In this document: positions 15,701 through 33,864 of the stretch, one piece after another
Numbering within the stretch: the stretch's first letter is position 1
How the letters are laid out: each line of letters starts with the position of its first letter
Assembly: GCA_000708835.1 (NCBI GenBank)
Contig: DF237619.1
Span: 13,623 to 47,486, forward strand
DNA length: 33,864 bases
Source of the DNA: Klebsormidium nitens
Lineage: Eukaryota; Plantae; Klebsormidiophyceae
Reading direction: 5' to 3'
The notes under the pieces: generated by a model
The model's input: the letters and a program-made list of their open reading frames with translations, nothing else
Database searches by the model: none
What the model was told of the DNA's origin: nothing
Made by a program: the position numbers and the translations under genes

Positions 15701-17062
15701 CTCAGCGCGGGTGGCAACGTTGCATCATCAGGTTCGTAGACTTTTCCTTGTTAGTTTCTTCCTCTGGATTGTCTTCCTTTGAAGTAGTTGCCAGACGCAA
15801 CGAGTGGCCAAGTCATGGCTGTTGACGGGTCAAATCGGTGAAGCAGGCAAATGTATACCCTCCCACTCTGTCGCGAAGTCAGATACCACTTCAGCTCTTC
15901 TGTACTCCTTGACCTGGACAAGTGCATTTGTAATTTTGGACCAGGATGTGTTCAAGGAGCCTGTTAGGTCTTCGCAGTGACTGTTCCCAATCCGCTCGCG
16001 AATCCCAGAAGCTTGATAAGAACGATATAGAGTTGCTCTGAGCGGGGAATACTTGCAATACCCTGCTTTCAACGGGGCCCCTTCCTGGTTGAGAAAGGCA
16101 CCTATTCCGAGAACAAGGGTTGCGGAAACTCGTTGGCCCCAGCAAAATTTGGGGTCTTATCAGGAAAGGCGTCAGGTACCTATTCTCCGAGTCAGCTTCA
16201 AAGGACTTTCAGGAATCCTATCTCGACAACGTGCACGGAGCAGCCTTGGTGGACGGAGAGCTTCCAACATCGTATTTGGTGCCTTCTCTGCCTTCTCCTT
16301 ACTTTGTTCCGGTTGGACCTCGCTTCTGACACCCAGCTTCTCCTCCTCCATCAGATTGGCGGCATCGTTGGGCGTGAAGAGAAGAGCCTCGAAAGCTTTG
16401 CGCTCTCGCCCCTCGGCGACCAGGCCGCGTTTCTCGGAAACGAAGGCCACGTCAGTCTGGTTTCCCTCCACTCCAAGCAATGGATCGGCACGCTCAAAAT
16501 GAACGGCTCCGCTCGCGCGGCGGCGTACGCCCCCGATGGGAATACCCTGCTGACGTCTGGAGGAGACGGAGAGATCTACCACTGGGACGTGCGCACCCGG
16601 CGGTGCATGTACCGCACTCGCGACGAGGGCTGTGTGAAAAGCTCCGCGTTAGATGTGTCATCGGACGGCCGGTATTTCGCCACGGGGTCGGACAGCGGGG
16701 TGGTTAACGTCTATAACCGAGCGCGGTTAGGGGTGGACGATGAACCCGTGAACGAGCCACGTGGGTTGTTCTCCACGAGCCCATCGCCGTTGAAAACGGT
16801 CATGAACCTGACGACAGTAGCGGACACGGTCAGGTTCAATCCGGACGGGCAGATTCTGGCGATTGCATCGCGGATGAAGAAAGACTCGCTGCGGTTGGTG
16901 CACCTGCCGAGCGGGACCGTGTTTCAGAATTGGCCCACGGCGCGGTCGCCGTTGCAGTTTGTGCACTCGTTGGACTTCAGCCCGGGGGGCGGGTTCATGG
17001 CGGTCGGGAATGCGAAAGGGAAGGTACTACTGTACAGATTGCATCATTACGAGCACGCATAG
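9772..17062 (+). CDS. UTP18: U3 snoRNA-associated protein 18 homolog (WD40, SSU processome)
   Basis: Exons 9772-10023, 10888-11184, 11950-12030, 15186-15425, 16355-17062, all phase 0 with GT/AG ends; 1578 bp, 525 aa. Motifs: LEKELFG, PAWVDDEDEEVTVNIARVNRLRKLR, RMRDANQEEP, SVCFHPNAQLLLTAGLDK, GTLKMNG, KDSLRLVHLPSGTVFQNWP, GKVLLYRLHHY. Confidence 0.95.
11395..11463. repeat. Perfect two-copy 33-bp tandem repeat with internal hairpin (intronic)
   Basis: aactcaagaaaagctttgggttttcttgaattg twice (11395-11427, 11428-11460) plus aac. Each unit contains the stem tcaagaaaa/ttttcttga. Confidence 0.9.
15013..15715 (+). repeat. Degenerate partial copies of UTP18 exon 4 in both flanking introns
   Basis: About 15013-15130 echoes the exon 5' half (SVVRSVF...LLLAASQHEGAKITLLN vs GVVRSVCF...LLLTAGLDKTVRFFN). 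About 15509-15577 (YRKWFCDIRHVPARVER plus gtgagt donor) and about 15655-15715 (AGRRTQVCVMDFASARVA) echo the 3' half AGRRKWFYVVDLASARVER. Confidence 0.7.
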
Positions 17063-18074
17063 TCAATGAGCGGGAAAGTTTCATGGAAGATCGGGCCAGC
17101 GGGTAGACGAACAGGCCTAAATGATTTCATAGGTCAAACTAGGGCCAATGCTACCATTTAGCTTGACATTGATCAAGTCGATCAAAGTAGCGTGTATGAA
17201 TCAACTTGACACAAGATTCTAGAGCATGTTCTTGATGAATATCGTGGCTGTGGATCTAGCTGTTTCGTTCATTAGTACGTCATCAACTTTGCTTGTCACA
17301 TTGCAGTCTATATGTAAGTTACTTGGCCGATATGGGCTTTGCTAATATCCCATCGTATGGCTGGACATGCTTGGACCCGAACAATGGCGGCCAGATGGGA
17401 TCGTGTTCTGGCCGATATGAGCCTATGCTTCATGCTTATATCAACTGGCAAAGTTGCAGAAGATGATTGATTGAATCGCGTGTGACCGTCTCAGTTTGGT
17501 GGGGCGTTTGTCGGAAAATCATGTACGATCAAAGCGACTGCACATGTAGACTTTTTAACTTGGTCAAGCAACCATGCATTTGCTCGATCGGCGCACTGAC
17601 ACCTAGGCACTGATGGCCCTCCGACAGGCCTTTCAATCCTAGTGAATCCAAATCATTATCCTAATGTATCCGGCTGGTCCTTTGGCATACAGAATTGCCG
17701 AAGTTTAAGCTGAGCTTGACCTCAATCTGATGTACCTGCCACTATCACAATTTTAGGTACTTACTGATTGATAACGTAGTTCACTGAGAATTTCGATACC
17801 CACCTGGCAAGGTAGACGAATTACTTTGTCCAGTGCATCCAACCATCCAACCATCCAACCAATTTTGCAGGAGGCGAAGGGTACTAGATCCTAAGTATCG
17901 GCCGTGCTCGGCCTACCGTAAGTCTGATAAGGGATGCAAAGTAAGCTTGGTGCCACAGAACACCTCGGCATCTCATGCAAGTTCTAAATGACGGCCAGAA
18001 CCGCAACGCGTTCCATATATAGGGCCACCCAGCTACAAGGTGTCGCTCAATCTCCGCGAAAGACGGCCGCATGA

Positions 18075-21000
18075 CTAGAGGTCGCCTTCACCATTCACTT
18101 TCCACGCCTGTAAGGTTTCCTCTTCCGCAGGCTGCGCATCTTGATCGCCTTCCTCGACATCCTTCACCTTCATCTCGCTGCCACCTGTCCTCATTCGTTG
18201 CAGCTTCTAACGTACTCTGGACTTTAAACTCAGCCGGTGCTTCTTCGTGAAGCGGATGTGGAGGTCAGGCGCCGGCTCCTCTTCGCTCTTATCCTGAGAT
18301 TCAAAAGGAGATTCTTTTCAATCGCAATTGCAATACCCGTACGATTCAGGTCGCAAGGTGGATAATCTGAGAACGGGCTAAGAACACGGGCACGAAACGA
18401 GTGACCTGCTATCAACTCTCGCGTGACCAAACGGGCTTGTGACCTAGGATACGAGTAACCCGGGCATTTAAACCAGGAAATACAATCTTGAATGTCTACC
18501 CGCTCCGCACCGGAACCCACCCTAACCACCCAACTAACTTCACCCGTCTCCCGGGTGCCCTTCTTGAGTCACACGCGTATTAAGTCACACGGGAGTTATC
18601 AGACCACGGGCGGGTGCGTAATGGCTAGCTTTCTGGTTCATGGATCCAGCACTGCGAGTATGGCTGCCCTAGGCATACACTTCTTTTAGATATGCTCAAA
18701 GGCTGAGCTTCCCGTGCAAGTGAGGACTCTTACCTTGACGGCGACAAACGCAAGCATGAGCAGACTGGGGACGATGACCCACACGCCCGCCCACTGACTC
18801 AGCAACGTGGTGTACTGCAACGTGTTGATCTCCGCAAGGTAGATGACGCCTTCCTGGTCGAACGTGTAGCCAATCTGGAGGAGGCTGAAAAGGCGAAGAG
18901 TGAAAGGGAAGCTCAAATCAACTAACAGAATACGAGGGGGCCTGGCAAATCATATGGAAGTCGAGTGGATTGGTCCATTGTCTCACGCATGATAGCCTGC
19001 TCTCGTTCCTCAGATGACGTCAGGTGGCGATCAAGCTTAGTGTCAACCGTGCAGACAATAGGAATAGTGACGATTCAGGTCGTGATATATCCAGTGGTAC
19101 CTCTAGGTTTACAGCTCGGACGTGTCAGTTCTGTTAGATGCTCTTTTTCTCGAGGAGCAGAATGAATGACGAAAATCAGGTTCGAAAAACGCAGAGCGTG
19201 TCCAACGGACGAAAGGAGTGCAGGTAAAGAGATGCGGCTCACTTCTTCTCTGCGAGTTGGTCAGCTGAAAAAGCGAACGTCTGAAGGTTGGTTGTTCGGT
19301 ACCAGACTTCGTTGCGGTTCCACAGCTTGTCTTTGTACACAGCCGCGAGAACCATTTGCGTAAATGTCTGCAAAACCAGAGGCCAAGCCTGTAAGCTTCT
19401 GTCCTCTTTGCTGTCCGGTTTTTTGAGAGACCTTTGTGGAAGGAATGAAGACGCCCCAGATCTTCACCCGGCTTCGACTTCTGGTGTGTCTGAAAAGCAG
19501 AAGAACAACTAAGCAAGACCGGTCCCCTGATTGCTGGCCTCACGCAACGTAGACTCGAACATTCCATGGGTTCCGTCGAAGAAGCTGCACAGTTCAACGT
19601 TACAAAGTACGCTGCCAAAGCGAGCTACTTTCATCAAGGAATCCCACATCCATATACCCTAAAACGATTTTTGATTGAGCCAAAACTTCGAGCCCACTTT
19701 AAATCAGAAAGAATCCGACGCGGCCTCGAGCTCGATCGTCTGAGTTTGGTTTTTTGACCAGGGCAACAAGTGACGGCATTCGTCTTGCACTAAGGAGCAG
19801 TTCTCTGACTCGTAGATTGCTATGTATGTAGATTGCTTTGCAAGTATTCATGTGGACTAGCAATTTGCGGAGTTACGGAATTGGAAAATGGGAATCTGGG
19901 GAACTCGGGAATTGTGAATCGAACCTGGGTGGGAAGGTCGAACTCCGTTGCTTTGTAGTCGGCGTCGTAAGGAGTGAGGATTTCCGCTCCGTGATAAAGT
20001 GTCGTCCATACAAAGGAAGGAGGTAGGGGCTCGGAGTGATTACTACTGTTGAAGCTGTTGAAACGCAGCACTGCATAGAAGACAAACCGGTTATGGCTGC
20101 GTTCTACTCAAGTTTGGATTTTGTACGTTTCGAGAAGTGACTCTGTTAAGTGACGGTGGGGAGCCTATGCTTGAGTCAAAGTACGGAGGCAACGTGAAGT
20201 ACTCTGTCCAAGCGCATGGCAAGATATATTCCGAACTTCCACGAGTCAATTCTAGTCCAAATGGGCAGCTCAAAGAAGGCATATACTTCTCAGGAGCGAA
20301 TGTGTCTGGACATGTGGCTTGTGAGATTCTGGATCTAGGGCTGATTTCGAGAAAGAAAGCTGATTTCGAGAAAGAAAGCTTTAGAAAATGCGATTGGAAG
20401 AGACACTCACGTATGTCCAGGTAATACGAATTGTTCCCCTCATAGCCACTGGAAGCGAAGTCCCAGCAAATCGTTCTCAGGTAGTCCTGCACAGAGTTGG
20501 ATAAATTTGTTAAGTATTCTGGAAGCTCGACTTTCATACCTAGACACCACGGAGAGTACTGGTCCACTAGAGGGCCGAGGGTCCCACCAATCAGGTGTGA
20601 ATAGTATTGGCCAACCTTCCTTCCGGTTCGCAAGGGCCCAACAATCCAATTCACACGTTGGTCGAGAAGAATGCTTTTAAAATCCCTATCTTCAAAATCA
20701 GAATGTTCCGTGTGCAAGGTATGAAAGGTCGAAAGCAGGGATGCTGGGTTTTGAGGAGCAACAACACCTGTAGGTCCATGGCAATAACGCCCCTTGGATA
20801 TATATTAGGGAACACTTTGGCGCTCCAATCGACTTGTCAACTTGTCAAGGCTGGGACCAGGGACAACCTCGACACATTCCGGATCCATTTCAATCTTGCA
20901 GCAGCCAGACTGAAGTGAAGAAGAAGAATCTGTTGTTTAGCGAAACCGGTCCCCCGCTGCTCCACCTCCAGCCTCAGCCGCTCGGCTTCCGCCGTTTCCC

Positions 21001-22811
21001 TCGGCTCCTGCCACGACTGCCCGCCCTGCATCCTAGCATCCTTCTTCCGTTCTCGTGCCTCCTTCCGAGACGTCTCTCATCTGCCTTCCGAGCCCTGTCT
21101 TCTTCTTTCTCTCGCTCTTGTCCGGCCCTCAGAAAACAAACGTCACTAGCTTACTACGAGAAACTTGCACTGAAATCAATGCAATGCAAGGTCGAGTATC
21201 TCACAGCGGGAGCACGAGCGGGAAGCCGACTTTACATGGCCTTGAAAAGTTAGGGGGAAGTATCACAAAACTTCCTATGTTGGTTCATGTTCTGCTGCAG
21301 GAGAACACTTGGGATTCAACGACGAAGAAAGTTGAGTATGAGGTGCGCATTGTGCCAATCAAGAGAGTGGATAGACCCTGTCGTCTTCCATTCCAAGGAA
21401 CATTCTCCTCATCGGCAACGAAGCTTCCCATAGTGCAGATACAGGAAATGAAAAGCTGCACATATAGTACATGTAGCAAAAACTCGTTTTATGAAAAACA
21501 GCAAAGAAAGCAGCCACTACCGTCGCAATGAAGAAAGCCGGCAAAACACCGTCCCCAATAAAAAGTAAACTAAAGAAGATACAAACACGGAATTTGAAAT
21601 GCATTGAAATGGACTCGGAAGAAAATGCCGCTTCTGATTTCGGCCAGGGAAGATGTCTCTACAGTTTGTATTAGGACTCGTGAAGAGTTGGCAAGAATGG
21701 TTACAGACAATGGTTGTTCAACAAGTTTGTGACAGTGGACCAAGTAATTGAACTATCATGATTTGAAAATTAATTAGTTGATTATTACTAACTGTGTCAC
21801 AGTGATGATAAGACCCGCTGATGAGCCACTATCAAAGACAAGGTATTCGATGAATGATACAAGGGTAAATTAGCTGATACAAATGTTGCAAGTGTCTAGA
21901 ATGTACTCAATTAGCTTTCCTGTGTCTTCTGTACTGATCATATTGTACTTTCGTATCCAGCAGCAATAACACCAGGATCCTCAAAGACTTGGTACCTTTT
22001 CTTGGGACCCCCTTGAGATTTTAACAGGGTCAGCTCCCCCCTTCAGAGTTGCACCCTCCCAGGTTGCACAGCTGCTTGTGGAGAGTAAGGGACGTACTGG
22101 ACGTAATGGTAATAGCAATCAAGGGTAAGGATTGATCGATTTGAGGAGATGTTGGTAATCCTCTGCCTGAACCCATGCTACAGCCCCTCTTTCTGACTCT
22201 TCCTCTGCAAACCAGTATAGATAGATTCCTGTGGTTCCCTTAAGATAACCCTGTGGGATTGCACTGAAGCTATGTATTTCTCCGGTGTCGCTAATGGCAA
22301 CGTTGTCTGATACACTCCTGATGGCGGTCTCTCGAGCCGCATATCCATCCTGAGAGAGCGAAAGATTTGCGAACAGGGGGATGGTGAAATCCATAGGGCT
22401 ATTAAAAGTCCTCATATAGGTGGCGTAAGGAAGGCTCGCGAACACATTACCATGGAGCTTCAAACTTTGCCAGGCGGTAGTTCTCGCAAACTCACGAAGC
22501 CTCTTGGAGTTCTCTGTTTCTAAGACCTCAAGCGGAAGAGAGCCATCCTCCCCAAGCTGAGGGACAAGATAAGCCAGTTGGTTGCGGGATTCCGACATAC
22601 CGTACTTACGAAAGAAAGTCCGTCGTGAGAAACGAAAAGGGATGCATGAGCAGGGAGGAAGACTGTGGATGGAACCTTGTGTCTGCATGCCATTTCTGTT
22701 TGCGTGCCTGTCAGCGCGAAAATTCGCGACGTAAGGCATTTTGGAAAGCGCGCGGGTGACCGATTCTGTTAAGGTCTCTGACCGCTTGCCCCCGCTACCC
22801 AACGTCCTCAT
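18075..22811 (-). CDS. Unidentified multi-exon gene, probably a single-pass membrane protein; exon structure and both ends only partly resolved
   Basis: Splice-consistent minus-strand exons: 18874-18734 (IGYTFDQEGVIYLAEINTLQYTTLLSQWAGVWVIVPSLLMLAFVAVK, hydrophobic helix), 20029-19925, 20305 to about 20128, about 20640-20411 (GTGAGT donor at 20410). There is also a long open frame at about 22811-22119. No family recognised. Confidence 0.45.
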
Positions 22812-23039
22812 GAGCCACCCATGGCTCCTACGGGACAAAAAAAAACTGATCGATTGAGGTTTGATTGACCCGGTTCCTCGAACCGCCGTATTGGCCAGAA
22901 CGCCATTCGGCGAAATCTCGGTCGGGGGGACACGTGGCACGCTAGGGTGGCTCCTTTTTAGGCCAACAATCCCCAAATCTCCGGACTGATATAACCAGGT
23001 GCCGCGCAAATATTTATGTCACTTTAGATTTGATGGGTA

Positions 23040-23339
23040 CCGTACCGCCACACTCAATTCGCAGACCCCCGTTGCGAAAAAGTTATTTTCGAAGATTTTT
23101 CCATTTCGCACTGGGATATTGACAATTATTTAAGCAATTGCCAGTTTTTAGCACTTGCTGGTTAACAGCGGTAAACCCACGCTAACAGAGCTTGTTTACC
23201 AGTATAACCGCCCTATTTTCGCAACCCATAAGTATTTTGAGCGTATACGTTTTCGCACCAGCTCTTGTACAAGTAATATTTTTTTCCGCATGAACTTCAC
23301 AATAATTATTTACAGTGCGAATTGCGTGTAGCGGTACGG
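23040..23339. mobile_element. Tc1/mariner-type (Stowaway-like) MITE, 300 bp, near the host/virus-like junction
   Basis: TIR CCGTACCGCCACACTCAATTCGCA (23040-23063) matches the reverse complement of 23316-23339 at 22/24. TA on both sides (23038-39, 23340-41). AT-rich interior with repeated TTTCGCA/TGCGAA motifs. Confidence 0.85.
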
Positions 23340-23718
23340 TAGGCTCGCCGCAGGCTTAGGAACCAGTGCAGCAAACAGGTCGCCGCGAAAACAACACTAA
23401 TACTTTCTAGCAAAACTCTCGCAGTTGACGCAGTATGTTTTAGTGCCGCCGGCGGTCGAGAAATTGGGCGAACTTGTCCGAGTGAAACCAAATAGACTAC
23501 AACTAGCCGAGTGTTGTCCAATCGACCCAACTACCTCGGATCTCATCAGACCTTTCTGAAAGTCCTGGGTGGCGGTTGTACGTTGCCTCAGTGAAGACAT
23601 GTGGCATCCGATTCCCATGCCTTTTCGAGGCACAGGTGAAAAACACCGGTGTTAGCACCTTTTCATAGCATACTTTCATTCCTCCAATTCACCCAGACAC
23701 CCATGTAATTCTCTCTAC

Positions 23719-24018
23719 ATGAGAAATTTTGGAAGGATCCATCTTTTGTCAGAGATCGATCGATCGCCGCACATCTCAGACCTTTCGGAAGGAAGTGGGT
23801 GTCTGGGTGACGCGGTTATGAGCGCCATGGACGCCATGTACACTGCCTCTATGAACACTACGTGGTTGATAAAGTTTCTTTTTCGCGCTCATCTCAAGAA
23901 GATCGGCGGTGGGATCCTCATGCAAAGTTTAGCTCGTCTTCTGGAAGAGGTCGAACGTGTGTATCGATCGAAAAGATCTTCCGAGAATGGTAACAAAAGC
24001 GAACGAACATGCCGGTGA
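23719..24018 (+). CDS. Small hypothetical protein (virus-like region)
   Basis: 99-aa ATG-started ORF with helical, protein-like composition (TWLIKFLFRAHLKKIGGGILMQSLARLLEEVERVY); no motif recognised. Confidence 0.4.
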   Translation: MRNFGRIHLLSEIDRSPHISDLSEGSGCLGDAVMSAMDAMYTASMNTTWLIKFLFRAHLKKIGGGILMQSLARLLEEVERVYRSKRSSENGNKSERTCR

Positions 24019-24067
24019 CCACACGTTCCAGTACGACGAAGCATTGCGGGCGGCGGCATCCCCGAGG

Positions 24068-25407
24068 CTACCGGCGAGGAGAGCGCAAGCGATGTATTTT
24101 CTGACGATACGCGCGGTGTGAGACATTAGACCGGCGTGGGAGGGGCAGAGCTTCGCGCATGAGTGCAATCATGTACGTGATGATTGCCGGTCCGCATGAT
24201 ATAGAGTCCGTTTGTCCCGGCACATCTGTTCCGAAAACGTGCTGTACTGGCCCCTGAATGACATGCGCGTCCCTAAGAATCCGCTCGACGTTCATGAGCT
24301 CATCTGGCATGGTCTTCATCAACGGATCTTAACTGTTGAGGCGGCTGTTGAGCACGTCATAAGCGACGAGCACCCAGTGGTAGTTTGCGAGATTGATGGA
24401 CATGAACACGTACCGCACCCCTCGCATGTTCGGCTGCGAAACCAATTCTGCGATGCTCCGAAAGTTGTAGGGGGCTAGTTTCCTGGTCCTCGTCCGGTCG
24501 TCGTTGCCGTCCTTCCACACGCTCTCATGGTTGCGATTCAGGAGGGGGCCGATCTGCCCGTGAGTCGCCATCGTATACACGATGCTTGGGTATGCGATGC
24601 AGTCGTCCTTGTTGTTAATTAGCTTGCACATGCCGTCCACGATCGCATCACTGATGATCTCGCCGTTGTGCAAGGTTTGTAGATCGTTGAATTCGACTGG
24701 AACTCCATTCGGATAAACACCGACCGTGATCTGCGGAGGGACGTCCCCTGGATCATCCAGTGTCTCCACGAATGTCCGCGCCTGCTCGTAAACCCGGTTG
24801 TCGAAACCCGTCAGAGAGAAGGGAAGCGGTCTACTCGGGTCCGAGGTCCCTTTCTTCCTCATTTGTAATCGTTTTCGTACGCCGGGAGCCCTCTTGAACG
24901 CGTACATATCCACTGGAGGGCTGATCTTTTTCCGTCGTGTTCTGGTGGCCATCGGTGGTGGCCTTTTTTCTGAAGTCGCGCCGTGCTTGTTTGGGATCAC
25001 TCGGTTCGGACTTTTAGTCGGCAGGCCTCCCGTTTTCACCGCGACTCCAATTGAATGTTTTATTCGACCCGCCTCCTGTCTTCAGCCCGACTTGATCCTG
25101 CGTGGCATTGCCGCTGGTGCGATTCGCACTCCCCTTCCGCTTCTTCCTCTTTGTTCCTGTGGGAGGACGCTTGCGTGTAACTGATGGTGCACCCTGGCGT
25201 GCCAGCGCCCAATCGCACATCGACAGCGTACTTTCTCCAAAAATGGGACGCCCTGTGGAATTGAGCTGCCGGTATAAGGACGCCCGCTCTCTGATCGCTC
25301 TCGGGATCGCCGCATCCTCTAAGGCATAAGCCAAAAACTCGATCCAGCCGTGGGCCTTTGGCACATTGGCCCTGAGCTGACACTCTGAAACACATATTCT
25401 CCAGCAT
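24068..25407 (-). pseudogene. Ulp1/SENP-like (C48) cysteine protease pseudogene
   Basis: Motifs LQTLHNGEIISDAIVD, SINLANYHWVLVAYD (catalytic His), NS*DPL (Asp; TAA at 24329-24331 replaces the expected aromatic residue), QTDSISCG (Gln and Cys). ORFs 24329-25039 and 24068-24322 share one frame. The N-terminal part (25014-25415) is in other frames. Confidence 0.8.
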
Positions 25408-25473
25408 CTCGACAATGATACGCCCCTCGAGTCAGTGTTGCAGGTACACGGGGCATTTCTTTATACGTTATTA

Positions 25474-25640
25474 CCGTTTTCGCCCAAACTGTCGCCCGAA
25501 CCGGGCGCTATTCGAGCGAATAAACGATAACAATACCGGATTAGGCCCATACAAGTACGGACTGGTACCGGCTATCTGCGAACCGCCGGGTTATGAAGCC
25601 CGGTATTCGCGAACAATCCTCATATACTGGCCGACCGGCA
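25474..25640 (-). ncRNA. Putative Fanzor omegaRNA/fRNA scaffold
   Basis: Lies between the Fanzor stop and the element 3' end, where TnpB/Fanzor guide RNAs are encoded. Hairpins: GCGAA-ccg-CCGGG-ttatgaag-CCCGG-ta-TTCGC (25578-25610), CGCCCG-aac-CGGGCG (25493-25507), TATTCG-ag-CGAATA (25509-25522). The 5' boundary is a guess. Confidence 0.55.
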
Positions 25641-27455
25641 AAACTCTGCCAGCCTGGCACGGCCTTCGAGCCGCAACCTGAGCAGCCTCAGGATGTTGCG
25701 GGCAGCGTTCACGTCGCGGATCACCGTCATGCCATGACAGCCACTGTTTCTGCAGTGGAGCACACTGTGAACTTTGACGGTCTTCACCGCCCCATCCTTG
25801 CACCGCTTCTCCGAATACTGGTTGTGCAGCTGCGTCTTGCAGTCGAAGTGCAGCTTGCTGGTCCTGAACTTCGTCCATCGAGACCACCCTGCAATGCTTG
25901 CGAAGCTCCCGCTCCAGTCGCTTCACTGGCCCGGACGGAGATCCCTTGATGATGCCTCCGGAGTCCTTGTTCGACCAGTCTCCGAAGCCCACCACCGTCT
26001 TGCACCCTACTCGCCTGGTGATAGCTTTGCAGAGCGAATGAAGCTTCTTCTGAGCCGAGATATACCGTTTGAACTTGAGCCCCCTAAAGCCCTGCCTCAT
26101 GTGGTAGACGAGGAGCATGTCGAGCCTGGGCAGCATATAGTGCACGTAAGCTAGGAATTTGGTGCTCTCCGAGGTCTTCTTGGTGGGCATGTTGCGGATG
26201 GCCTCGAGCACCTCCGGGCTCTTATCGTACCACCGCTTGATCTTGGCGTTGCTGTACTTGTATTTGGCGTCACCATAGAATTCTCGAGTTGAGCACTTCA
26301 GTTTCTCTCCTTCCTCGTTGACCATGACGAAGAGGTCTCGCCTGCCCGGGTCTAGGCCCCATAGCTCCTCTTCGCCCGTAAGCTCGGGGAGCGTTGCTTC
26401 TCCTGAAGCTTGCTTGGGTTTGGGCTTCCTCAGTAAGATGCACACGGCCTTTCCGTCCGTGATTATCTCTCCTGCGAATTTGCGTTGCATGTCTCGAACT
26501 TTGCGATGTCGAAGAGGTCCCGCCAGTAGTCGTCAGCCACCTTCCTGAACTCCGCTCCCGAGGCTGGAAGCTTGACCCCTCCCCTCTTGAGAAGCCCATA
26601 GAGTCCGTTGGTGCACATCTTGAGGTGATTGCACTCGATGCCCCTCTTCGTGGGCAGGAGGCTGAAGAGCCTCAGCTGCTTGCCTTTCTTCAGTTCTTCT
26701 TCTGTCAGGGGGTGATGCAACTCTATGTAGCGCAGGAACATGTATTGCATCGGCATGAGTATGTGAGGGGTGGAGTCTGCCCTGCCAGTAGTGGCTTTCG
26801 GAAGTATGGCTCGGTACCTCAAAACCAGTGGGTCGTTGCCTTCGTACTCATCGGCGAACATGTCCCGCATCTTGGCATAGCATGAAGGGCCATCGAGCGA
26901 GTACGTGTGCTTCAGGTAGCGCTTGAAGCGCTTGTAGAAGTTCGTGGCGATGGAGTTCTTGATGCACGTGGCCATCTGAAGGCTCGCATTCTGGTACCAG
27001 CCGGAAGAGAGATGCTTGCAGTCCGGAGGCCGATAGCCTGCAAGGCGTGATGCCAGGTAGAGCTCTACGGTCTCCCTGAGGTAGAGGTCTTTGACGGAGC
27101 TCTTCTGCCTACCAGCCATGCTGACGGCAGAGAGGCAGTTGTAGAAGAAAGGCTGATCCAGAGGTGGAACTTCGCAACCCAACTCACACATCCGTAGTAT
27201 ATGCAGGTTAGCAAGAATGTAGGCTTCACAGATGGCCTTATTCACTTCCTTGAGCACACTCTCTAGAGGAAGGGCCCTGGCAGCCTCCTTGCAGAAGCTG
27301 TTTAGGCTGGTCTTGACCACGGTGCATTCGGTCTCTTTGTTCCTCAGGGCCCGGAGCTTGACGTCCTCTCGGGTCCTAGGCTCTTTGAAGAGCTTGCTCA
27401 CGTAGGCCAGGCATTCGTGGTGGAGAGCGACGTCGGGGGGTTTCTTGGGTGGCAT
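25620..27455 (-). pseudogene. Fanzor: Fanzor (eukaryotic TnpB-like RuvC RNA-guided nuclease, Fanzor1-like), about 611 aa when repaired, with two frameshifts
   Basis: RuvC-I LWGLDPGRRDLF; VVGFGDWS; RuvC-II VSMDE[FRTSKLH]; Zn-binding HFDC...CRNSGC; RuvC-III RDVNAARNI; stop TGA at 25620-25622. A -1 shift lies near 26484 (FETCN/RKFAGEIITDG) and a +1 shift near 25870 (GAC GA[A]G TTC). Confidence 0.9.
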
Positions 27456-27539
27456 CAGACCACCCCTATGAGGCTCCTTAGGAAATTAGTTCTTGGAAAT
27501 TTTACGCACGGCCCAGGTTATGGTAAACGAGCCGAGCGC

Positions 27540-28736
27540 TTATAATATCGGGCTGTCGTATACAGTACTCAAGCGGGTAAATATATACGACAATCGTATG
27601 AAATAGGTCCAACCGGGCGGTTTCGCGCGACACTTTCGACGAAAACGGTAATAACCGATACTTGCAATTGATTCGTACTCGAAGCAGAATTCTTCCTCGT
27701 CGTTGAGCTCTCTGATCCTATCCTTTGGGTAGCCGACGATATGCACATATACTCCTGCAGTGTTCTCTGCACTCCTGCAGTCCCTGAAGAGGCGTTTTAG
27801 AATGTCTTTGAGGAGTCCATAGCGTCTCTCGGCCGGGTTGAAGCGCACGAAGTGAAGGGGGAGCCGCACGAGGTCCTTGATCTTGCCCATGCGGTCCACC
27901 TCGCACGAGACGTTGTAGTAGCGGTGATGATCCTCATCGACTTCTAGGACGACTGCATGTGTGTCGAAGATGAACGCGTAATCAGGGCGTTTGATACACG
28001 AAACGTCCCTGGTAGACATCTCGCGGGCACACGGGAGTGTCTCGTCCGAGTAAGACCACGGCCAGCCCTGCTTGCGAAGCCATCCAGTGGTGAAAGTCTC
28101 CCATCGCTTGAGAGACGTTCCCGACCGGCATGAGTAACAAGCTCTGCCCTTGTAGCGAACGGATACTTCTGAGCATACACAACACCTGGCCCCTCCGCCA
28201 TGCTTGATGCAGTGAGTGCCATGTGCCGCCTGGCCGCACCCCTCCGTCCGGCACAGCCGTCCACCTCCGTGCCCGGTGCAGAAGTTCCCAGGTCTCCGAG
28301 CCGTCTTGATGCATTCTTCTCTTTGACACTTCTTTCCCCCTCCGTGTCGGATGCAGTGGTCGCTTTTCCCATTACCATATGCTGCAGTTGTGCACCCGAA
28401 CGTCTGGCACTTCTTCCCTCCCCCATGAGTGGTGCAGTGTTTGCTCGGTTTTCTAGCCGGTTTGTTGCAGCCCTCTGTCTGGCATCGAGATCCCCCACCA
28501 TGTCGGGTGCAATGATTTGTAGCACCCTCCGCTGAAGTCTTACATCCTTGAGTCTGACGCCTTCTTCCACCACCATGTGTGAGACAATGCTTGTTAGGAC
28601 CAGGCGCCGAATGAGGACACCCCACACTCTTACACCGATACCCTCCACCGTGGGTGATGCAGTGTCTGCCCCCTTTCCCCTGTGCTATCCGATTGCACCC
28701 ATCTACAGCACAGATACGCCGGGGCTTACGTGCCAT
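27540..28736 (-). CDS. Protein with seven C-x4-C...C-x2-HGGG zinc-binding repeats (WRKY19-like repeat type) and a C-terminal PD-(D/E)XK-type endonuclease domain
   Basis: Seven HGGG repeats, then CCVC...CYSC, then RPDYAFIFDTHAVVLEVDEDHHRYYNVSCEVDRM...FVRFNP, a nuclease signature seen in large DNA virus proteins. The last 36 aa are read from the transposon end; the native end is inferred at about 27649. Confidence 0.8.
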   Translation of the reverse strand: MARKPRRICAVDGCNRIAQGKGGRHCITHGGGYRCKSVGCPHSAPGPNKHCLTHGGGRRRQTQGCKTSAEGATNHCTRHGGGSRCQTEGCNKPARKPSKHCTTHGGGKKCQTFGCTTAAYGNGKSDHCIRHGGGKKCQREECIKTARRPGNFCTGHGGGRLCRTEGCGQAAHGTHCIKHGGGARCCVCSEVSVRYKGRACYSCRSGTSLKRWETFTTGWLRKQGWPWSYSDETLPCAREMSTRDVSCIKRPDYAFIFDTHAVVLEVDEDHHRYYNVSCEVDRMGKIKDLVRLPLHFVRFNPAERRYGLLKDILKRLFRDCRSAENTAGVYVHIVGYPKDRIRELNDEEEFCFEYESIASIGYYRFRRKCRAKPPGWTYFIRLSYIFTRLSTVYDSPIL

Positions 28737-28834
28737 AGTTACTCGTAGAACAACGCACGAGTTCCGAGAGTTTCCCTATATCAACGCAGTTCAAACTCTC
28801 TGAAGGTATCGCCGTCATAAGAGGAACTGCGAGC

Positions 28835-29322
28835 TCACCACGCTCTCCTGACTCGGGCCATCCCACTTTTCCACGCTTCGTAGCGCAGGCGGTTCACGAG
28901 CGTTCGTTCTCCGGGGAGAACCCACTTCAAGTACGTCGCCAGCATCTTTCCATCTGCGTTGTAGTTCTGGATGTACCCATGCGTCAGGTGGTCTATGGTG
29001 CGTGCGAAGATCTCCGGCCCCGAGTATCTGGCCGGGTCGAAGCTCCTGACGGCGTCCCGGATGGCGAACGGAAGCAGGAGACTCATCCCAACGTCTATGC
29101 AAGTAGGCTTATCGTTCTTGACGTCGTACAAGATGTTATTCGCGTGGGAGTCTCCGTGAACGAATCCTAGCGACCACAGGGAGACGAAAGTCTTCTCCAC
29201 GGCGACGTACTGCGTGGCGGTCAGTCCGTTCTGCCTGACGGCGATCGCGTGCAAGGTGTCACCGGGTGCCCTCGTCATGACCTGTATGCTGATAGCCATT
29301 CCTCCGCCAAAGAGTATGCCGG
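28835..29322 (-). CDS. Ser/Thr protein kinase, C-terminal part (5' end in assembly gap)
   Basis: Catalytic loop GFVHGDSHANNILYD and activation-segment start PTCIDVG. Confidence 0.8.
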
Positions 29323-30209
29323 NNNNNNNNNNNNNNNNNNNNNNNNNNNNNNNNNNNNNNNNNNNNNNNNNNNNNNNNNNNNNNNNNNNNNNNNNNNNNN
29401 NNNNNNNNNNNNNNNNNNNNNNNNNNNNNNNNNNNNNNNNNNNNNNNNNNNNNNNNNNNNNNNNNNNNNNNNNNNNNNNNNNNNNNNNNNNNNNNNNNNN
29501 NNNNNNNNNNNNNNNNNNNNNNNNNNNNNNNNNNNNNNNNNNNNNNNNNNNNNNNNNNNNNNNNNNNNNNNNNNNNNNNNNNNNNNNNNNNNNNNNNNNN
29601 NNNNNNNNNNNNNNNNNNNNNNNNNNNNNNNNNNNNNNNNNNNNNNNNNNNNNNNNNNNNNNNNNNNNNNNNNNNNNNNNNNNNNNNNNNNNNNNNNNNN
29701 NNNNNNNNNNNNNNNNNNNNNNNNNNNNNNNNNNNNNNNNNNNNNNNNNNNNNNNNNNNNNNNNNNNNNNNNNNNNNNNNNNNNNNNNNNNNNNNNNNNN
29801 NNNNNNNNNNNNNNNNNNNNNNNNNNNNNNNNNNNNNNNNNNNNNNNNNNNNNNNNNNNNNNNNNNNNNNNNNNNNNNNNNNNNNNNNNNNNNNNNNNNN
29901 NNNNNNNNNNNNNNNNNNNNNNNNNNNNNNNNNNNNNNNNNNNNNNNNNNNNNNNNNNNNNNNNNNNNNNNNNNNNNNNNNNNNNNNNNNNNNNNNNNNN
30001 NNNNNNNNNNNNNNNNNNNNNNNNNNNNNNNNNNNNNNNNNNNNNNNNNNNNNNNNNNNNNNNNNNNNNNNNNNNNNNNNNNNNNNNNNNNNNNNNNNNN
30101 NNNNNNNNNNNNNNNNNNNNNNNNNNNNNNNNNNNNNNNNNNNNNNNNNNNNNNNNNNNNNNNNNNNNNNNNNNNNNNNNNNNNNNNNNNNNNNNNNNNN
30201 NNNNNNNNN
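29323..30209. other. Assembly gap (887 N)
   Basis: Run of N. Confidence 1.
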
Positions 30210-30333
30210 TTGGGAACGAGTTCACTCCGGCGCTGAGGACCTTCCCAGAATCGTTCACGATCAAACACCCGACTTTCGTTTGCGGGTCCTTACTCTTCTG
30301 CTGCGCGAGCCTCTTCGCTTGCTCCATCGTCAT
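30210..30333 (-). CDS. dCMP deaminase, N-terminal fragment (rest in gap)
   Basis: MTMEQAKRLAQQKSKDPQTKVGCLIVNDSGKVLSAGVNSFP matches the SxDPxTKVGxxIV...GxNxFP N-terminus of deoxycytidylate deaminases. Confidence 0.85.
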
Positions 30334-30359
30334 GACAGCACCGAGACACCTAACCAGCC

Positions 30360-31061
30360 CTAAACCGCATCTTCGGCGGGCCCTTCCGGCCCAAACAGAC
30401 GCCAGGCACCGTACGCGCACGCCAACCCCGTCAGCCCGAAGAACGCGTACGTCGTGTACTTTGCTGCCGCCACGGGTTCTTTCGTTCTCTTCGCGGTCTT
30501 CTCGAAGCTGACCACCGCTCTTGGTGCAGGGGGTATCGGCTCGTACTTGGCCGGTGGAGGGGGGTCCGTGGGCAAGCGCAACCTCTTCCCCAGCGTCTTG
30601 AACTCGAAGACGAGCGAGTGGTCCGCGCCACCGGTATCGTATAGTGCCCCCGCGTCGTCCAGCAAGATGACGCTCAGCCTAGATATAGAGACGGGGTCGC
30701 AGAGGTTGTCCCCTATCTCGGTGATCGCGGGCCTGTAATACTTGACCTTTCCGAGCGGTGAGTCCATCGGTAAGCGTGCCAATATCGACCGGCCTTGCGT
30801 CTCGTTCTCGCTGAAGGCCTCGTCTCTGTACACGGCCGTCTGACAGGAGGGCTTTGGCGCCTCGTCCACCGCGACGTCCAGGTAGAGCGTCTCGGCCGTG
30901 TTTGGTATTATAGCAGATATGAGGCGCAGGGAGACGCAATTGTGTATCGAGTACGGAAGGCGTATGCTGTAAGAGTTAGAAGAAGGGTACGTCGCGAGGT
31001 TCCTGCTCGAGCTATTCAAGCAGACGTGGAATCGGAAGAAGCAAGGGACGCTCTGATCCAT
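30360..31061 (-). CDS. NCLDV-type conserved protein, possible single jelly-roll (penton/minor-capsid-like) domain, Pro-rich linker and C-terminal transmembrane helix
   Basis: CLNSSSRNLATYPSSNSYSIRLPYSIHNCVSLRLISAIIP at the start and LSVILLDDAGALYDTGGADHSLVFEF later resemble beta-rich virion proteins of large algal viruses. Hydrophobic tail YAFFGLTGLACAYGAW. Confidence 0.55.
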   Translation of the reverse strand: MDQSVPCFFRFHVCLNSSSRNLATYPSSNSYSIRLPYSIHNCVSLRLISAIIPNTAETLYLDVAVDEAPKPSCQTAVYRDEAFSENETQGRSILARLPMDSPLGKVKYYRPAITEIGDNLCDPVSISRLSVILLDDAGALYDTGGADHSLVFEFKTLGKRLRLPTDPPPPAKYEPIPPAPRAVVSFEKTAKRTKEPVAAAKYTTYAFFGLTGLACAYGAWRLFGPEGPAEDAV

Positions 31062-31103
31062 GAGGACCGCATAAGTTCACGCAGGAGAATTCTCGCGTGA
31101 GAG

Positions 31104-31400
31104 CTACGCATACTGCGCCCTGCCCCACGACTTCTTCTTGAGATGAGTACACGCCTTCATCAGATCCTGATCCACCGTGTCTTTGCTCTCCATCAACTTT
31201 GCAAATTCTGCCTCTAGGACCTCCGTCGAGACGTCTCCGTCTCGACGCTGCAGTGGGCACACATCCAGGAGGATCTCGAGCAACAGGGCGAACGTCTGCG
31301 TAGGATCGTTCAGCATGAAGATAAGAGCCTTTCCCTCGTGCGAGCCCAGCTTGACGAATTGCCTCCCCCTCTTCCCAAAGGGATAATCGTATACTTCCAT
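31104..31400 (-). CDS. Hypothetical protein
   Basis: 98-aa ATG-started ORF packed between neighbours, protein-like composition; no motif. Confidence 0.55.
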   Translation of the reverse strand: MEVYDYPFGKRGRQFVKLGSHEGKALIFMLNDPTQTFALLLEILLDVCPLQRRDGDVSTEVLEAEFAKLMESKDTVDQDLMKACTHLKKKSWGRAQYA

Positions 31401-31482
31401 GACTACACGTACTCCGTATATTTGTCGGGGGTGCCAGAACGCGGCAGCGAGGCCAAGTACATTTGCATTGAGGTCTCATAGC

Positions 31483-31926
31483 ATGGACAAGATCTCATCC
31501 GACCAACTCACGTGGGTGCTGTCCAAGGCAAGATCCTACGCGCTCGCCGTGTGTTCGTTCAGGGAACCGAAAGACGTCATGATCACGCTGGACACGTGGG
31601 GCTGGGGGCTCCTCCCGCGTAACAAAGCATGGTTGTGCGAGATACCAAGCGAGCACGTGTGTTCCATGCCAGTGAAGGGTGAGTGGAGATGCTACGTGCA
31701 CGAAGGAGCATTCAACTACTACAGGGGCGATATCGCCAAGGCTGCACGTTATACATTGTACGTACACGCAACTAAGAACCACGGCGCCTTCTGTGTGCTC
31801 AGAGATAATGAAGACCGGCCCTTGAAGAGACAAACGTTGCACTTTTTGGACATCACGAACGCCGACGAGCTGAAAACGAGAATGGGAGCTCTGCCACCAC
31901 TCAACGACACGATAGCGTTGGTTTGA
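31483..31926 (+). CDS. Hypothetical protein
   Basis: ORF 31399-31926. The ATG at 31483 (MDKISSDQ) is preferred because the ATG at 31399 overlaps the ATG of the divergent ORF. No motif. Confidence 0.55.
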   Translation: MDKISSDQLTWVLSKARSYALAVCSFREPKDVMITLDTWGWGLLPRNKAWLCEIPSEHVCSMPVKGEWRCYVHEGAFNYYRGDIAKAARYTLYVHATKNHGAFCVLRDNEDRPLKRQTLHFLDITNADELKTRMGALPPLNDTIALV

Positions 31927-31934
31927 ACGCACTC

Positions 31935-32861
31935 TCAGACGTCTCTCGACATGTCCAGCAAGATGTCATCTACCGACTTACACCATTCCTTTTCTTCTTC
32001 AGGCTCGTTGAATGTCTCCCAAGCCCGCAATGACACCTGCCCCTTCTCCCTGCTGTTGCACGATAGCTTATGCTCCTTCCAGTCGCTAACCGAGCATTTC
32101 TTGGAGCAGTACGCCCTACCCTTGCAACGACTACAGACATGCAGTCTCTGCCACTCCGGGCCCGCCCTCCCTTCCGGCCTGGTCGCGAAGCAAAAAGCGC
32201 ACATCAGTTTGACGTCGACCGCCACGTCGATGTGCACCCTGGTGATCGGCCGGTCGTAGTTGCTCGTATCGAAGAAGACGCTCCCCGTGTTCAGGAGGTT
32301 GAGCATGTTCCTCGCTCCCTTTCGAAAGTTCCGAGACTCCTCTCCGGTAGAGCGGATCCTCGGTCTGTCCAAGAGCCGCATGTAGTGGACCAGGGAAGTC
32401 GAAGCATCAGGGGCACCCATCACCTTCAATGTATCTTCCAAGGTCGAGAGGTACTTCAGACTACGGAGAAGTTTGAGCACCATGAAAGCTATGTCGGTGA
32501 TGTACTCTCCCTGCCACCACTCCAGCCTCTTCGGGCCGCATGTCCCGTCGTCGTTGAGCTCGAGAAACCAGGTCGGTATGTCGTGGAGCAGCAGGTGGTG
32601 ATTGCTGGCCAACAGGCTCGTCAGAGACTTGATGTCGCCGTCCGTCAGCTGCCTTTTCATGGCGTTGTGGTTCAACTCCTCGCTCGCCTTCTTGACCATC
32701 TCGCAAACCCTGTGCTTACTCTGCAGAGACATGTCGCTAGGAGCATGCTTCTTGACGGCCTTGATAGCCACACACAGAGCCCTCCTCCCCTGCTGCGCAT
32801 TCACCAGATCATGGACGGCTATCTCTGCTCTATCAAGGGCCTTTTCGAAAGAGGGCGCCAT
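31935..32861 (-). CDS. MYND zinc-finger protein
   Basis: C-terminal CAFC...CSRCKGRAYCSKKCSVSDWKEHKLSC fits zf-MYND; 308-aa intronless ORF. Confidence 0.85.
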   Translation of the reverse strand: MAPSFEKALDRAEIAVHDLVNAQQGRRALCVAIKAVKKHAPSDMSLQSKHRVCEMVKKASEELNHNAMKRQLTDGDIKSLTSLLASNHHLLLHDIPTWFLELNDDGTCGPKRLEWWQGEYITDIAFMVLKLLRSLKYLSTLEDTLKVMGAPDASTSLVHYMRLLDRPRIRSTGEESRNFRKGARNMLNLLNTGSVFFDTSNYDRPITRVHIDVAVDVKLMCAFCFATRPEGRAGPEWQRLHVCSRCKGRAYCSKKCSVSDWKEHKLSCNSREKGQVSLRAWETFNEPEEEKEWCKSVDDILLDMSRDV

Positions 32862-32919
32862 CTTCCACCGCGAGTCTGAAAAGAATGTGTTGCCTTCTCA
32901 GTGATTTTATATGTGTGAA

Positions 32920-32966
32920 AATGGCGTCCGAGAGCTCGCCCCATTGAATGGTGTCCGAGAGCTCGC
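32920..32966. repeat. 20-bp direct repeat, period 27, in a divergent intergenic region
   Basis: aatggcgtccgagagctcgc (32920) and aatggtgtccgagagctcgc (32947), one mismatch. Confidence 0.8.
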
Positions 32967-33088
32967 GTAAGCTACTAGCGCACGTGCGAATGCCGTCCGA
33001 AACACGCATGTCGGACGCCAGTCTCGATATGAGGAAATTTCAGCGTCGATATAGGGCCGTCGACTCTCCGTAACCGACGTCAGGCACC

Positions 33089-33864
33089 ATGGAGCGTACC
33101 GAGCGTGCACCGACCTCGCCCATCGAGTCCGTCGACGCGGACGTGCTGCTGGAACTGCTCGAGAGACATTCGGACATGAGGGCCTCTTCCGTCGCTTCCC
33201 TGGCATGCACCTCGAGGAGCTTCAGAGACGCCGCTGGAAGGGCTTGGCCGTTGATGATGGCAGCATACGAACGAAGGTGTGACGAAACGTCCAGAGCGAG
33301 GCCTTCCATAGACCTGGGCCGATGCGTCGATCCACTGGCGTGCGAGGAAGACTGCGAGTATGAGGCGGACACCACGCCCTCGGGAAAACCATACGTGAGC
33401 TTCTCCGTCCGGAATCTCATGACGGAGGCGGACAAAGAAGCCGCGTTGATGCCCGTGTCAACCGCCAGGAAGACATTCTTCCTAGCGACAGAGGATTTGA
33501 GGTCTCTACGAGCATACAAAGACGTGCACGCGAGGAAGTTCTTCCGCTTCCGCGACGTCATCGAGGCGACGATGCTACGCTTCGGGCGGAGAGAGGCCAT
33601 GAAGAAGATGCTGGCGTACGCGAGGAAGCGAGACAGGGCTCAGGATGCTCGAGCTTCGAGGTGGCGGGAAGTGGAGGAGATCTCACGCTCCACCGTCCAA
33701 GAGAGCGATTGGCCGTGCTGTCACGACCTCCTGGAGATAGCGGGGGACTACCATGGAGCTGGCCAGAACCCTACTTCCTGATGCCTAACGAGAAGGGAAT
33801 CGTGCAGCACCTGCACGTGGGTTACTGCCTGACGGGAGACAGGCGTTTCGTCCAGGACGCGATC
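33089..33864 (+). pseudogene. F-box-like plus XPA C-terminal-like protein, apparently frameshifted near 33700, running past the window end
   Basis: F-box-like N-terminus IESVDADVLLELLERH...ASLACTSRSFRDAA. XPA_C-like VSTARKTFFLATEDLRSL...FFRFRDVIEATMLRFG. After about 33700 another frame stays open to the end (ERLAVLSRPPGDSGGLPWSWPEPYFLMPNEKGIVQHLHVGYCL). Confidence 0.55.

Follow-up and report, generated by a model that had tools for sequence, protein, structure and literature searches.

The window analysed here is a stretch of 33,864 nucleotides from the genome of the alga Klebsormidium nitens (contig DF237619.1, positions 13,623 to 47,486 of the forward strand). Its left 22.8 kb are host DNA with a WD40 gene and spliced transcripts. 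Its right part, starting at about 24,040, carries a dense array of genes, called the segment in the following, for which an origin from an integrated giant virus is considered. The public models KFL_006700050, 060, 070 and 080 of K. nitens match the window at 99-100% and all lie on a contig of 47,486 bases. We take the names Klebsormidium flaccidum and Klebsormidium nitens to denote one strain.

Ten genes or gene remnants were recognized between 24,040 and 33,864. The coding segments, which were picked by the analyst, account for 7,659 of the 8,938 non-N bases (~86%), and introns are not needed. The genes are packed head-to-tail with gaps of tens of bases, and their third-position guanine plus cytosine (GC) content is 0.59-0.80. 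Codon periodicity is present from about 24,000 and is nearly lacking over 17,100-23,900. The GC content is 0.56 in the segment versus 0.51 in the host part, and the observed/expected ratio is 1.02 versus 0.80 for CpG, which is not depleted, and 0.96-0.97 versus 1.16-1.34 for CWG. The base composition of the segment thus differs modestly from that of the host. Spliced joints were seen on the host side only. Pfam families found in the segment are zf-MYND, Zf_WRKY19, dCMP deaminase, an ABC1/APH kinase-like family, DUF5901 and a TnpB zinc ribbon.

The best viral marker in the window is the open reading frame (ORF) at 30360-31061 on the minus strand. Its frame is open and it matches DUF5901 (E 5.8e-6), a family that none of the papers searched mentions. 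The fold of residues 1-166 was modelled by AF2 from five sequences (pLDDT 59), while a single-sequence fold was too poor for use (pLDDT 41.5). Foldseek returned 58 matches at E<=1e-3 for this model in BFVD. Proteins of algal and other giant viruses headed the list and made up nearly all of the named matches among the top 30, in which a minor capsid protein of Klosneuvirus and one DUF5901 protein were present; a homologue of asfarvirus H240R, which is presumably a penton protein, held rank 38. The best PDB match was the PBCV-1 capsid chain 6ncl_a6 (167 residues; E 3.5e-6, Z 11.6, root-mean-square deviation 3.6, 141 residues aligned), which we infer to be the penton protein P1. It was followed by a second PBCV-1 chain (Z 10.3), EhV-201 (8.5) and the mavirus penton (8.2), whereas non-viral folds reached at most 7.1. 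The PBCV-1 penton is a canonical eight-stranded jelly roll (PMC6344570). Like P1 and the single jelly-roll minor capsid proteins described there, the modelled protein is predicted to form an eight-stranded jelly roll, with 141 residues aligned. It differs from the PBCV-1 chains, to which it is 18-20% identical, by an additional Pro-rich tail of 70 residues; the C-terminal helix predicted in this tail is just mildly hydrophobic. A PDB sequence search with the alignment of the penton-fold protein gave nothing. Judged by the modelled fold, the ORF is predicted to encode a single jelly-roll, penton-fold capsid protein and to be a virion structural gene of giant-virus type.

A second line of evidence comes from the zinc-finger gene at 27540-28736 (minus strand). 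It encodes WRKY19-type zinc-finger repeats recognized by Pfam and a C-terminal domain which we take to be nuclease-like; this domain had no library match and a PDB sequence search with it gave nothing. The first and the third of 120 listed matches of the gene are K. nitens proteins annotated as "hypothetical virus protein" (59% and 62%), and its relatives include environmental proteins at 57-61%. One K. nitens relative, P0007, is fused by annotation to VLTF3 (Pfam E 2.7e-46). The VLTF3 part of P0007 matches at 43% an MCP-adjacent gene of an IMG/VR contig (L001), which is a low-GC giant-virus contig carrying VLTF3 and MCP and sharing no gene with the window. Next to the zinc-finger gene lies the C-terminal part of an atypical protein kinase (28835-29322, minus strand; Pfam ABC1/APH below the cut-off, a weak Bud32-like NCBIfam match), and beyond a run of 887 N (29,323-30,209) follows the start of a dCMP deaminase gene (30210-30333, minus strand; Pfam E 3.1e-5, PHROG 174 E 6e-7). 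The N run cuts both genes, so that the 5' part of the kinase and the rest of the deaminase lie within it. It is likely an assembly gap, because the public model P0074, whose start is at 29299, aligns to non-N DNA throughout.

At the left edge of the segment we found the pseudogene of an Ulp1/C48 cysteine protease (24040-24952, minus strand). Read with its stop as X, it matches Pfam Peptidase_C48 with 21.3 bits at a cut-off of 20.7. There is a stop at 24,329-24,331 where the relatives read on, the frame changes near 24,130, and the 3' end is lost at about 24,040. Possibly the pseudogene extends in the 5' direction beyond a further break near 25049. A contig of X1 is identical to the window over 22,807-25,497 (2,691 bases), the Ulp1 breaks included. 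Therefore, these breaks are not assembly errors, although X1 and the assembly may derive from one strain. Among 336 candidates the search with Ulp1 gave three matches, namely the model of the locus itself, P0282 (67%) and one ENA protein, and a PDB sequence search gave nothing. P0282 is the only full-length relative. It runs 150 residues beyond the loss of homology at 24,040, and these C-terminal 150 residues have no match in 22,800-24,040. Since P0282 and P0007 each lie on a contig of 47,014 bases, the protease, the zinc-finger gene and VLTF3 are probably together on another K. nitens scaffold. At the host junction no intact viral terminus was found; viral-type coding stops in the truncated Ulp1 gene at about 24,040. 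The left edge is consequently an eroded end within a gene and not a viral terminus.

The right part of the segment contains a MYND zinc-finger gene (31935-32861, minus strand; Pfam E 3.1e-8), which is seen as a single copy in X1 and X3 and has a relative at 62%, KFL_001880170 (P0129). This relative lies on a contig of 159,814 bases, a possible further viral insert, and is fused in the annotation to a stretch which we take to be homing-endonuclease-like. Two hypothetical genes precede the MYND gene. One of them (31104-31400, minus strand) keeps its position in the second copy described below; the other (31483-31926, plus strand) is without a family, shows a coding-like GC pattern, and gave no usable match in Atlas. 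Their starts are head-to-head about 80 bases apart (31400-31483), with scant room for promoters, and the open frames extend towards each other. The F-box-like gene (33089-33864, plus strand) has F-box clusters in Atlas (0.93-0.94) as its sole lead. It is interrupted by a stop at 33779-33781, behind which a coding-like frame continues to the window end. The stop was confirmed by contigs of X1 and X3 which are identical to the window over 33655-33817, and the gene is likely frame-broken. A 14-base motif upstream of the zinc-finger gene (28774-28787, minus strand) recurs upstream of the F-box-like gene (33043-33056, plus strand), 33-38 bases from the two start codons. When nine upstream regions were shuffled 100 times, such a pair arose once. 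The motif, which was found after the fact, is a possible viral promoter.

Inside the viral-type genes a broken Fanzor1 transposon is nested (25462-27660, minus strand). It belongs to a multi-copy family and is bounded by terminal inverted repeats at 25462-25500 and 27622-27660, with arms of 39 bases that are 85% complementary; the target duplication is TA or TAT, depending on the placement of the ends. The 2.2 kb between the arms contain no transposase and no gene besides the nuclease. Related copies were found at other sites in X1 and X6. The Fanzor nuclease gene (25620-27455, minus strand) is broken near 26,490 and near 25,870. Its sole PDB match is Spizellomyces Fanzor1 (E 0.038), and NCBIfam assigns it to guided_TnpB (E 5.7e-6). 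Going by its sequence, it is classed as a frame-broken, TnpB-derived RuvC nuclease related to Fanzor1. No exact contig across either break was listed, and a sequence error is possible there. At the right end of the element a structured RNA is predicted (25445-25640, minus strand; z = -3.72, 0 of 200 shuffles fold as well). It has no Rfam match and is likely to represent a guide-RNA scaffold. KnFNuc, a five-copy Fanzor1 of K. nitens, has been tested before (PMC10530073). The window copy resembles KnFNuc and the clusters Fanzor50_0626/1426 ("family4") of that study as a multi-copy, intronless Fanzor1, and in its N-terminal part a count by eye gave about 20 differences from Fanzor50_0626 (Data S1) over the first 140 residues. 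Unlike the Fanzors in the rows of Data S1 used for comparison, it carries two frame breaks. The element starts where the relatives of the zinc-finger protein end (27657-27663). Therefore, the zinc-finger gene has gained a run-on tail of 40 residues, which is read from the Fanzor end.

An earlier note on this DNA, made from the letters alone, had listed the MYND, jelly-roll-like and two hypothetical genes as intact, and all four frames are indeed open. The zinc-finger gene is not strictly intact, as the Fanzor end has replaced its natural end. Of the lesions it proposed, three were found in Ulp1 and two in Fanzor, whereas for the F-box-like gene a break is likely. The label "XPA-like" for the latter is unsupported by any search.

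Between the host transcripts and Ulp1 lies a non-coding spacer (22852-24039). It contains an element of 304 bp resembling a miniature inverted-repeat transposable element (23038-23341; arms of 26 bases, 92% complementary), and more short inverted and direct repeats are present within 23,540-23,970. The ORF at 23719-24018 is probably spurious, as it has neither a family match nor codon periodicity. The start of the segment, previously set at 23,719, was thus moved to about 24,040, in the middle of Ulp1. The other part of that description, at least 10 kb of compact intronless ORFs beside spliced host genes, agrees with the coding density and with the host splice joints, but the join itself is unbridged. 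At the junction a short high-copy repeat with an A-run (22807-22843) is the point where the X1 contigs break. The X1 contig covering 13,500-22,836 has a depth of 23 and the adjoining contig (22,807-25,497) a depth of 13.4. Single Fanzor copies in X1 are also at depth 12-17. In X6, a separate sample with a different organism label, pieces of the spacer and of Ulp1 are 95-99% alike to the window, and the depth is comparable across the junction (host side 3.7-8.4, spacer 7.1-9.7). The X6 pieces mildly favour a join that is real and not private to one strain, and they speak against the left part of the segment having arrived very recently. X6 shows no cover of 28,284-29,322 and three distant pieces of 30,210-33,864, which was not counted as absence.

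The segment is not the only one of its kind in the genome. In X1 a second version of 30,212-31,818 and of 33,042 onwards is 93-98% alike, with 13/730, 15/571, 16/242 and 14/651 differences in the individual stretches. KFL_007780110, on another contig, has a gene order identical to that of the segment. The MYND stretch was seen once, and a further contig, whose left neighbour differs, joins at 33,042. Further relatives in the K. nitens genome stand at 59-67%. The closest sequences to the segment genes are K. nitens models, two of them named "hypothetical virus protein", and environmental proteins. Of the 24 changes between the copies that were listed for the deaminase and penton-fold genes, 16 are synonymous, versus about 24% expected. 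From 10 amino-acid differences to KFL_007780110 versus 14 listed synonymous changes, a conservative count, dN/dS is about 0.2 (0.23). Duplicates of silenced DNA should drift neutrally; with these values, the copies appear to have diverged as working viral genes. Judged from these sequence comparisons, the two copies most likely represent separate integrations of closely related viruses.

From the penton-type fold, the VLTF3-linked relatives, and the stops and frame breaks, namely those of Ulp1 and the F-box stop seen in the reads, we conclude that the segment is likely a piece of the genome of a giant virus (Nucleocytoviricota) which likely integrated into a K. nitens chromosome and is now decaying. 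We put the probability of this reading at about 0.8. The virus was probably phycodnavirus-like. Several observations weigh against this conclusion. Profile searches found no MCP, polB, A32, D5 or VLTF3 gene in the window, and the fold model of the penton-fold protein, made from five sequences, reaches a pLDDT of 59. Below the top dozen, the matches of the zinc-finger gene are mostly land-plant WRKY19-like proteins aligned in the repeat part only. The full-length relatives of the MYND protein are just K. nitens and a few environmental proteins, and P0282 is linked to the VLTF3 scaffold by the equal contig sizes. Scans of viral contigs returned L001 only, via the VLTF3 half of P0007, and no relative in a free virus. 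With respect to the copies, the synonymous test took in 40 of the 93 differences, 22 of these 40 being synonymous overall, and in the hypothetical gene (31104-31475) just 6 of 15 changes were. With respect to the junction, none of the contigs compared bridges the repeat at 22,807-22,843, and unique viral-type contigs of X1 further to the right also have a depth of 12.6-15.5. The depth step is unexplained, though contig depth does not equal copy number. Scans of metagenome contigs and a phage scan gave no match; a match of 27 residues to a genome contig from a bacterial metagenome-assembled genome was judged to be due to chance.

The domains in the segment leave room for other origins. The MYND, F-box, Ulp1 and WRKY19-type finger domains are of eukaryotic type, and in each case the nearest named relatives are models of K. 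nitens, as would be expected of host retrogenes with transposon cargo and no viral ancestry. The capsid-type fold largely refutes this idea, and head-to-tail packing, the lack of introns and relatives adjoining VLTF3 also speak against it, so that we regard it as hardly credible. Polinton-like viruses and virophages also encode a single jelly-roll penton and a cysteine protease. The segment might thus stem from one of these or from another small integrating DNA virus, the more so as the mavirus penton was among the structural matches (Z 8.2) and as the element continues beyond the window. However, the PBCV-1 chain (Z 11.6) and giant-virus proteins of BFVD are closer structural matches, and the cargo of dCMP deaminase, kinase, MYND and F-box genes together with the VLTF3-linked relative fits giant viruses. 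Moreover, the window contains no protein-primed polymerase, integrase or adenain-type protease; pPolB/TVpol, integrase/recombinase, packaging ATPase and double jelly-roll capsid genes were likewise not found in it, with the element cut by the window end. An origin from such a small virus is very unlikely.

Two further alternatives accept viral DNA and concern its place and its copies. The repeat at 22,807-22,843 could have mis-joined the segment to the host flank, in which case the viral DNA would sit elsewhere in the genome, be present in a fraction of the cells, or be extrachromosomal. The contig breaks at this repeat, with a depth of 23 versus 13.4 and no bridging contig, are in line with a mis-join, as is the report of a host-virus junction on just one K. 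flaccidum contig (PMC5294986). Mosaicism of the insert, a host-flank duplicate that has been collapsed, or library bias may equally account for the depth step. On the other hand, a repeat of about 40 bases should be spannable by ordinary reads, X6 holds pieces of both sides at similar depth, and the broken genes speak against a replicating free virus. Furthermore, the depth of single Fanzor copies in X1 suggests that the host contig may be the odd one. We consider a mis-join unlikely. More weight, although still on the improbable side, is given to a single old insertion that was duplicated within the host genome, its copies then drifting with no second infection. The identical gene order of the second copy and the evenly spread differences in the hypothetical gene, with its low share of synonymous changes, would agree with duplication, and the available text of PMC5294986 leaves both routes undecided. 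Against it stand the predominantly synonymous and clustered changes in the penton-fold and deaminase genes (p ~3e-5 versus 0.26, and 8e-4 versus 0.33), and the different left neighbour at 33,042 together with the single MYND stretch looks like a difference in viral gene content.

For an integrated and decaying giant-virus fragment the following course of events can be proposed. Viral DNA would have been captured during infection, a step for which the window retains neither an integrase nor a viral terminus. Host methylation, as described in the K. nitens literature, may then have silenced it. With selection gone the genes would have broken, and deletions would have cut the left end back into Ulp1. 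A non-autonomous Fanzor1 element, mobilized by a transposase encoded elsewhere, presumably inserted where the zinc-finger gene ended and broke later. The second copy would go back to an independent integration event by a closely related virus, its divergence having taken place under purifying selection. The earlier note had proposed a fairly recent integration which is now losing function. Its assignment to giant viruses stands on the penton-type fold and the VLTF3-linked relatives, even with MCP, polB, A32 and D5 missing within the window, and decay was found. A fairly recent date is plausible with CpG not depleted and most genes open, but it is undated, the left edge is eroded and the X6 pieces are 95-99% alike. 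Nor is the integration an isolated event, given the copy at 93-98% and the relatives at 59-67%.

Inserts of this kind are already known in K. nitens, and what is added here is this locus. Five DNA polymerase, 6 ATPase, 6 MCP and 5 VLTF3 genes of phycodnavirus type have been counted in K. nitens/flaccidum (PMC5294986), and several distinct inserts of nucleocytoplasmic large DNA viruses in this alga have been in print since 2017 (PMC5294986). According to the same source, no giant virus had been reported from streptophyte algae, to which land plants are related. The segment resembles these inserts in the species and in viral ORFs being fused into false spliced models (cyclin-MCP there, four fusions here). 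It differs in that the five core genes from which that survey started are lacking in the window; one host-virus junction is described in it. Endogenous giant-virus DNA in K. nitens is also described in PMC11244446, and clusters of virus-like genes with CHG methylation in PMC12344493 and its preprint. Our segment is similar to the giant endogenous viral elements of PMC12344493 as a cluster of virus-like genes in K. nitens. Punuivirus, a 617-kb endogenous giant virus of Chlamydomonas reinhardtii (bioRxiv 10.1101/2024.09.03.611062), is likewise a green-algal insert with Fanzor1 elements, some of them without transposase, and deleted relics of related viruses occur elsewhere in the Chlamydomonas genome. 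Punuivirus is a complete element that produces particles and carries terminal repeats with 6-bp target duplications, whereas the segment is cut in the middle of a gene, shows no terminus and contains broken genes. It is not a complete latent provirus of the Punuivirus or phaeovirus type, since Ulp1, Fanzor and likely the F-box-like gene are broken. In the main text of the K. nitens genome paper (PMC4052687) a term search found no mention of viral DNA. No published description of the locus and no long-read K. nitens assembly was found; Figure S5 of PMC5294986, Figure 3 of PMC12344493 and the KnFNuc table may bear on it.

The locus offers a candidate second host-virus junction in a species with one reported, and a capsid-type gene hidden in a chimeric public model. 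The clustered, mostly synonymous copy differences favour repeated infection over duplication, a point left undecided in PMC5294986 as far as its text is available. Environmental proteins 57-78% identical to segment genes mark an undescribed virus lineage which is worth seeking. A bolder scenario, which we think unlikely, is that K. nitens is being repeatedly invaded by an undescribed giant virus of streptophyte algae which still circulates, that the insert is present in part of the culture, and that Fanzor1 guides serve as a sequence memory. If this were true, the two copies at 93-98% would be recent separate integrations of recombining strains, carriage by part of the culture would explain why the depth is halved, and the Fanzor1 copies resident in the genome, their guide RNAs being taken from viral flanks as in this segment, would act against incoming relatives.

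The public models across window 24332-33600 are chimeric. KFL_006700050 combines Fanzor and Ulp1, KFL_006700060 the kinase, the nuclease-like domain and Fanzor, KFL_006700070 a hypothetical and the penton-fold gene, and KFL_006700080 the antisense of the F-box gene and MYND. Such chimeric viral/transposon gene models can mislead studies of early plant gene families.

On the host side, the last exons of the WD40-repeat gene (15184-17062, plus strand; Pfam WD40) are supported by a GT..AG joint at 15424-16354 in contigs of X5 and X13, which like X10 are runs guessed to be RNA. One or more spliced transcripts with CT..AC joints (17546-22791, minus strand) adjoin the junction. Contigs of these two studies stop at 22,760 (X5) and 22,791 (X13), a weak hint of a transcript end. 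X5 and X13 give almost no cover of 23,500-29,322 and X10 gives none of 30,210-33,864, which was not taken as silence. The minus-strand transcript contains an unspliced block of 2.4 kb with the orphan ORFs 22119-22811 and 20091-20804, for which family searches gave no match, and ends at most about 50 bases from the junction repeat. Window searches found no tRNA and no Rfam family. A further spliced host gene lies at 717-5374. Three of its pieces had no Pfam match at E 0.1, and it contains what we take to be a 2OG-Fe(II) oxygenase-like motif, unsupported by Pfam. Finally, an intron of the host transcript harbours a very high-copy short repeat (18495-18548; bin depth about 1,000 in X1).

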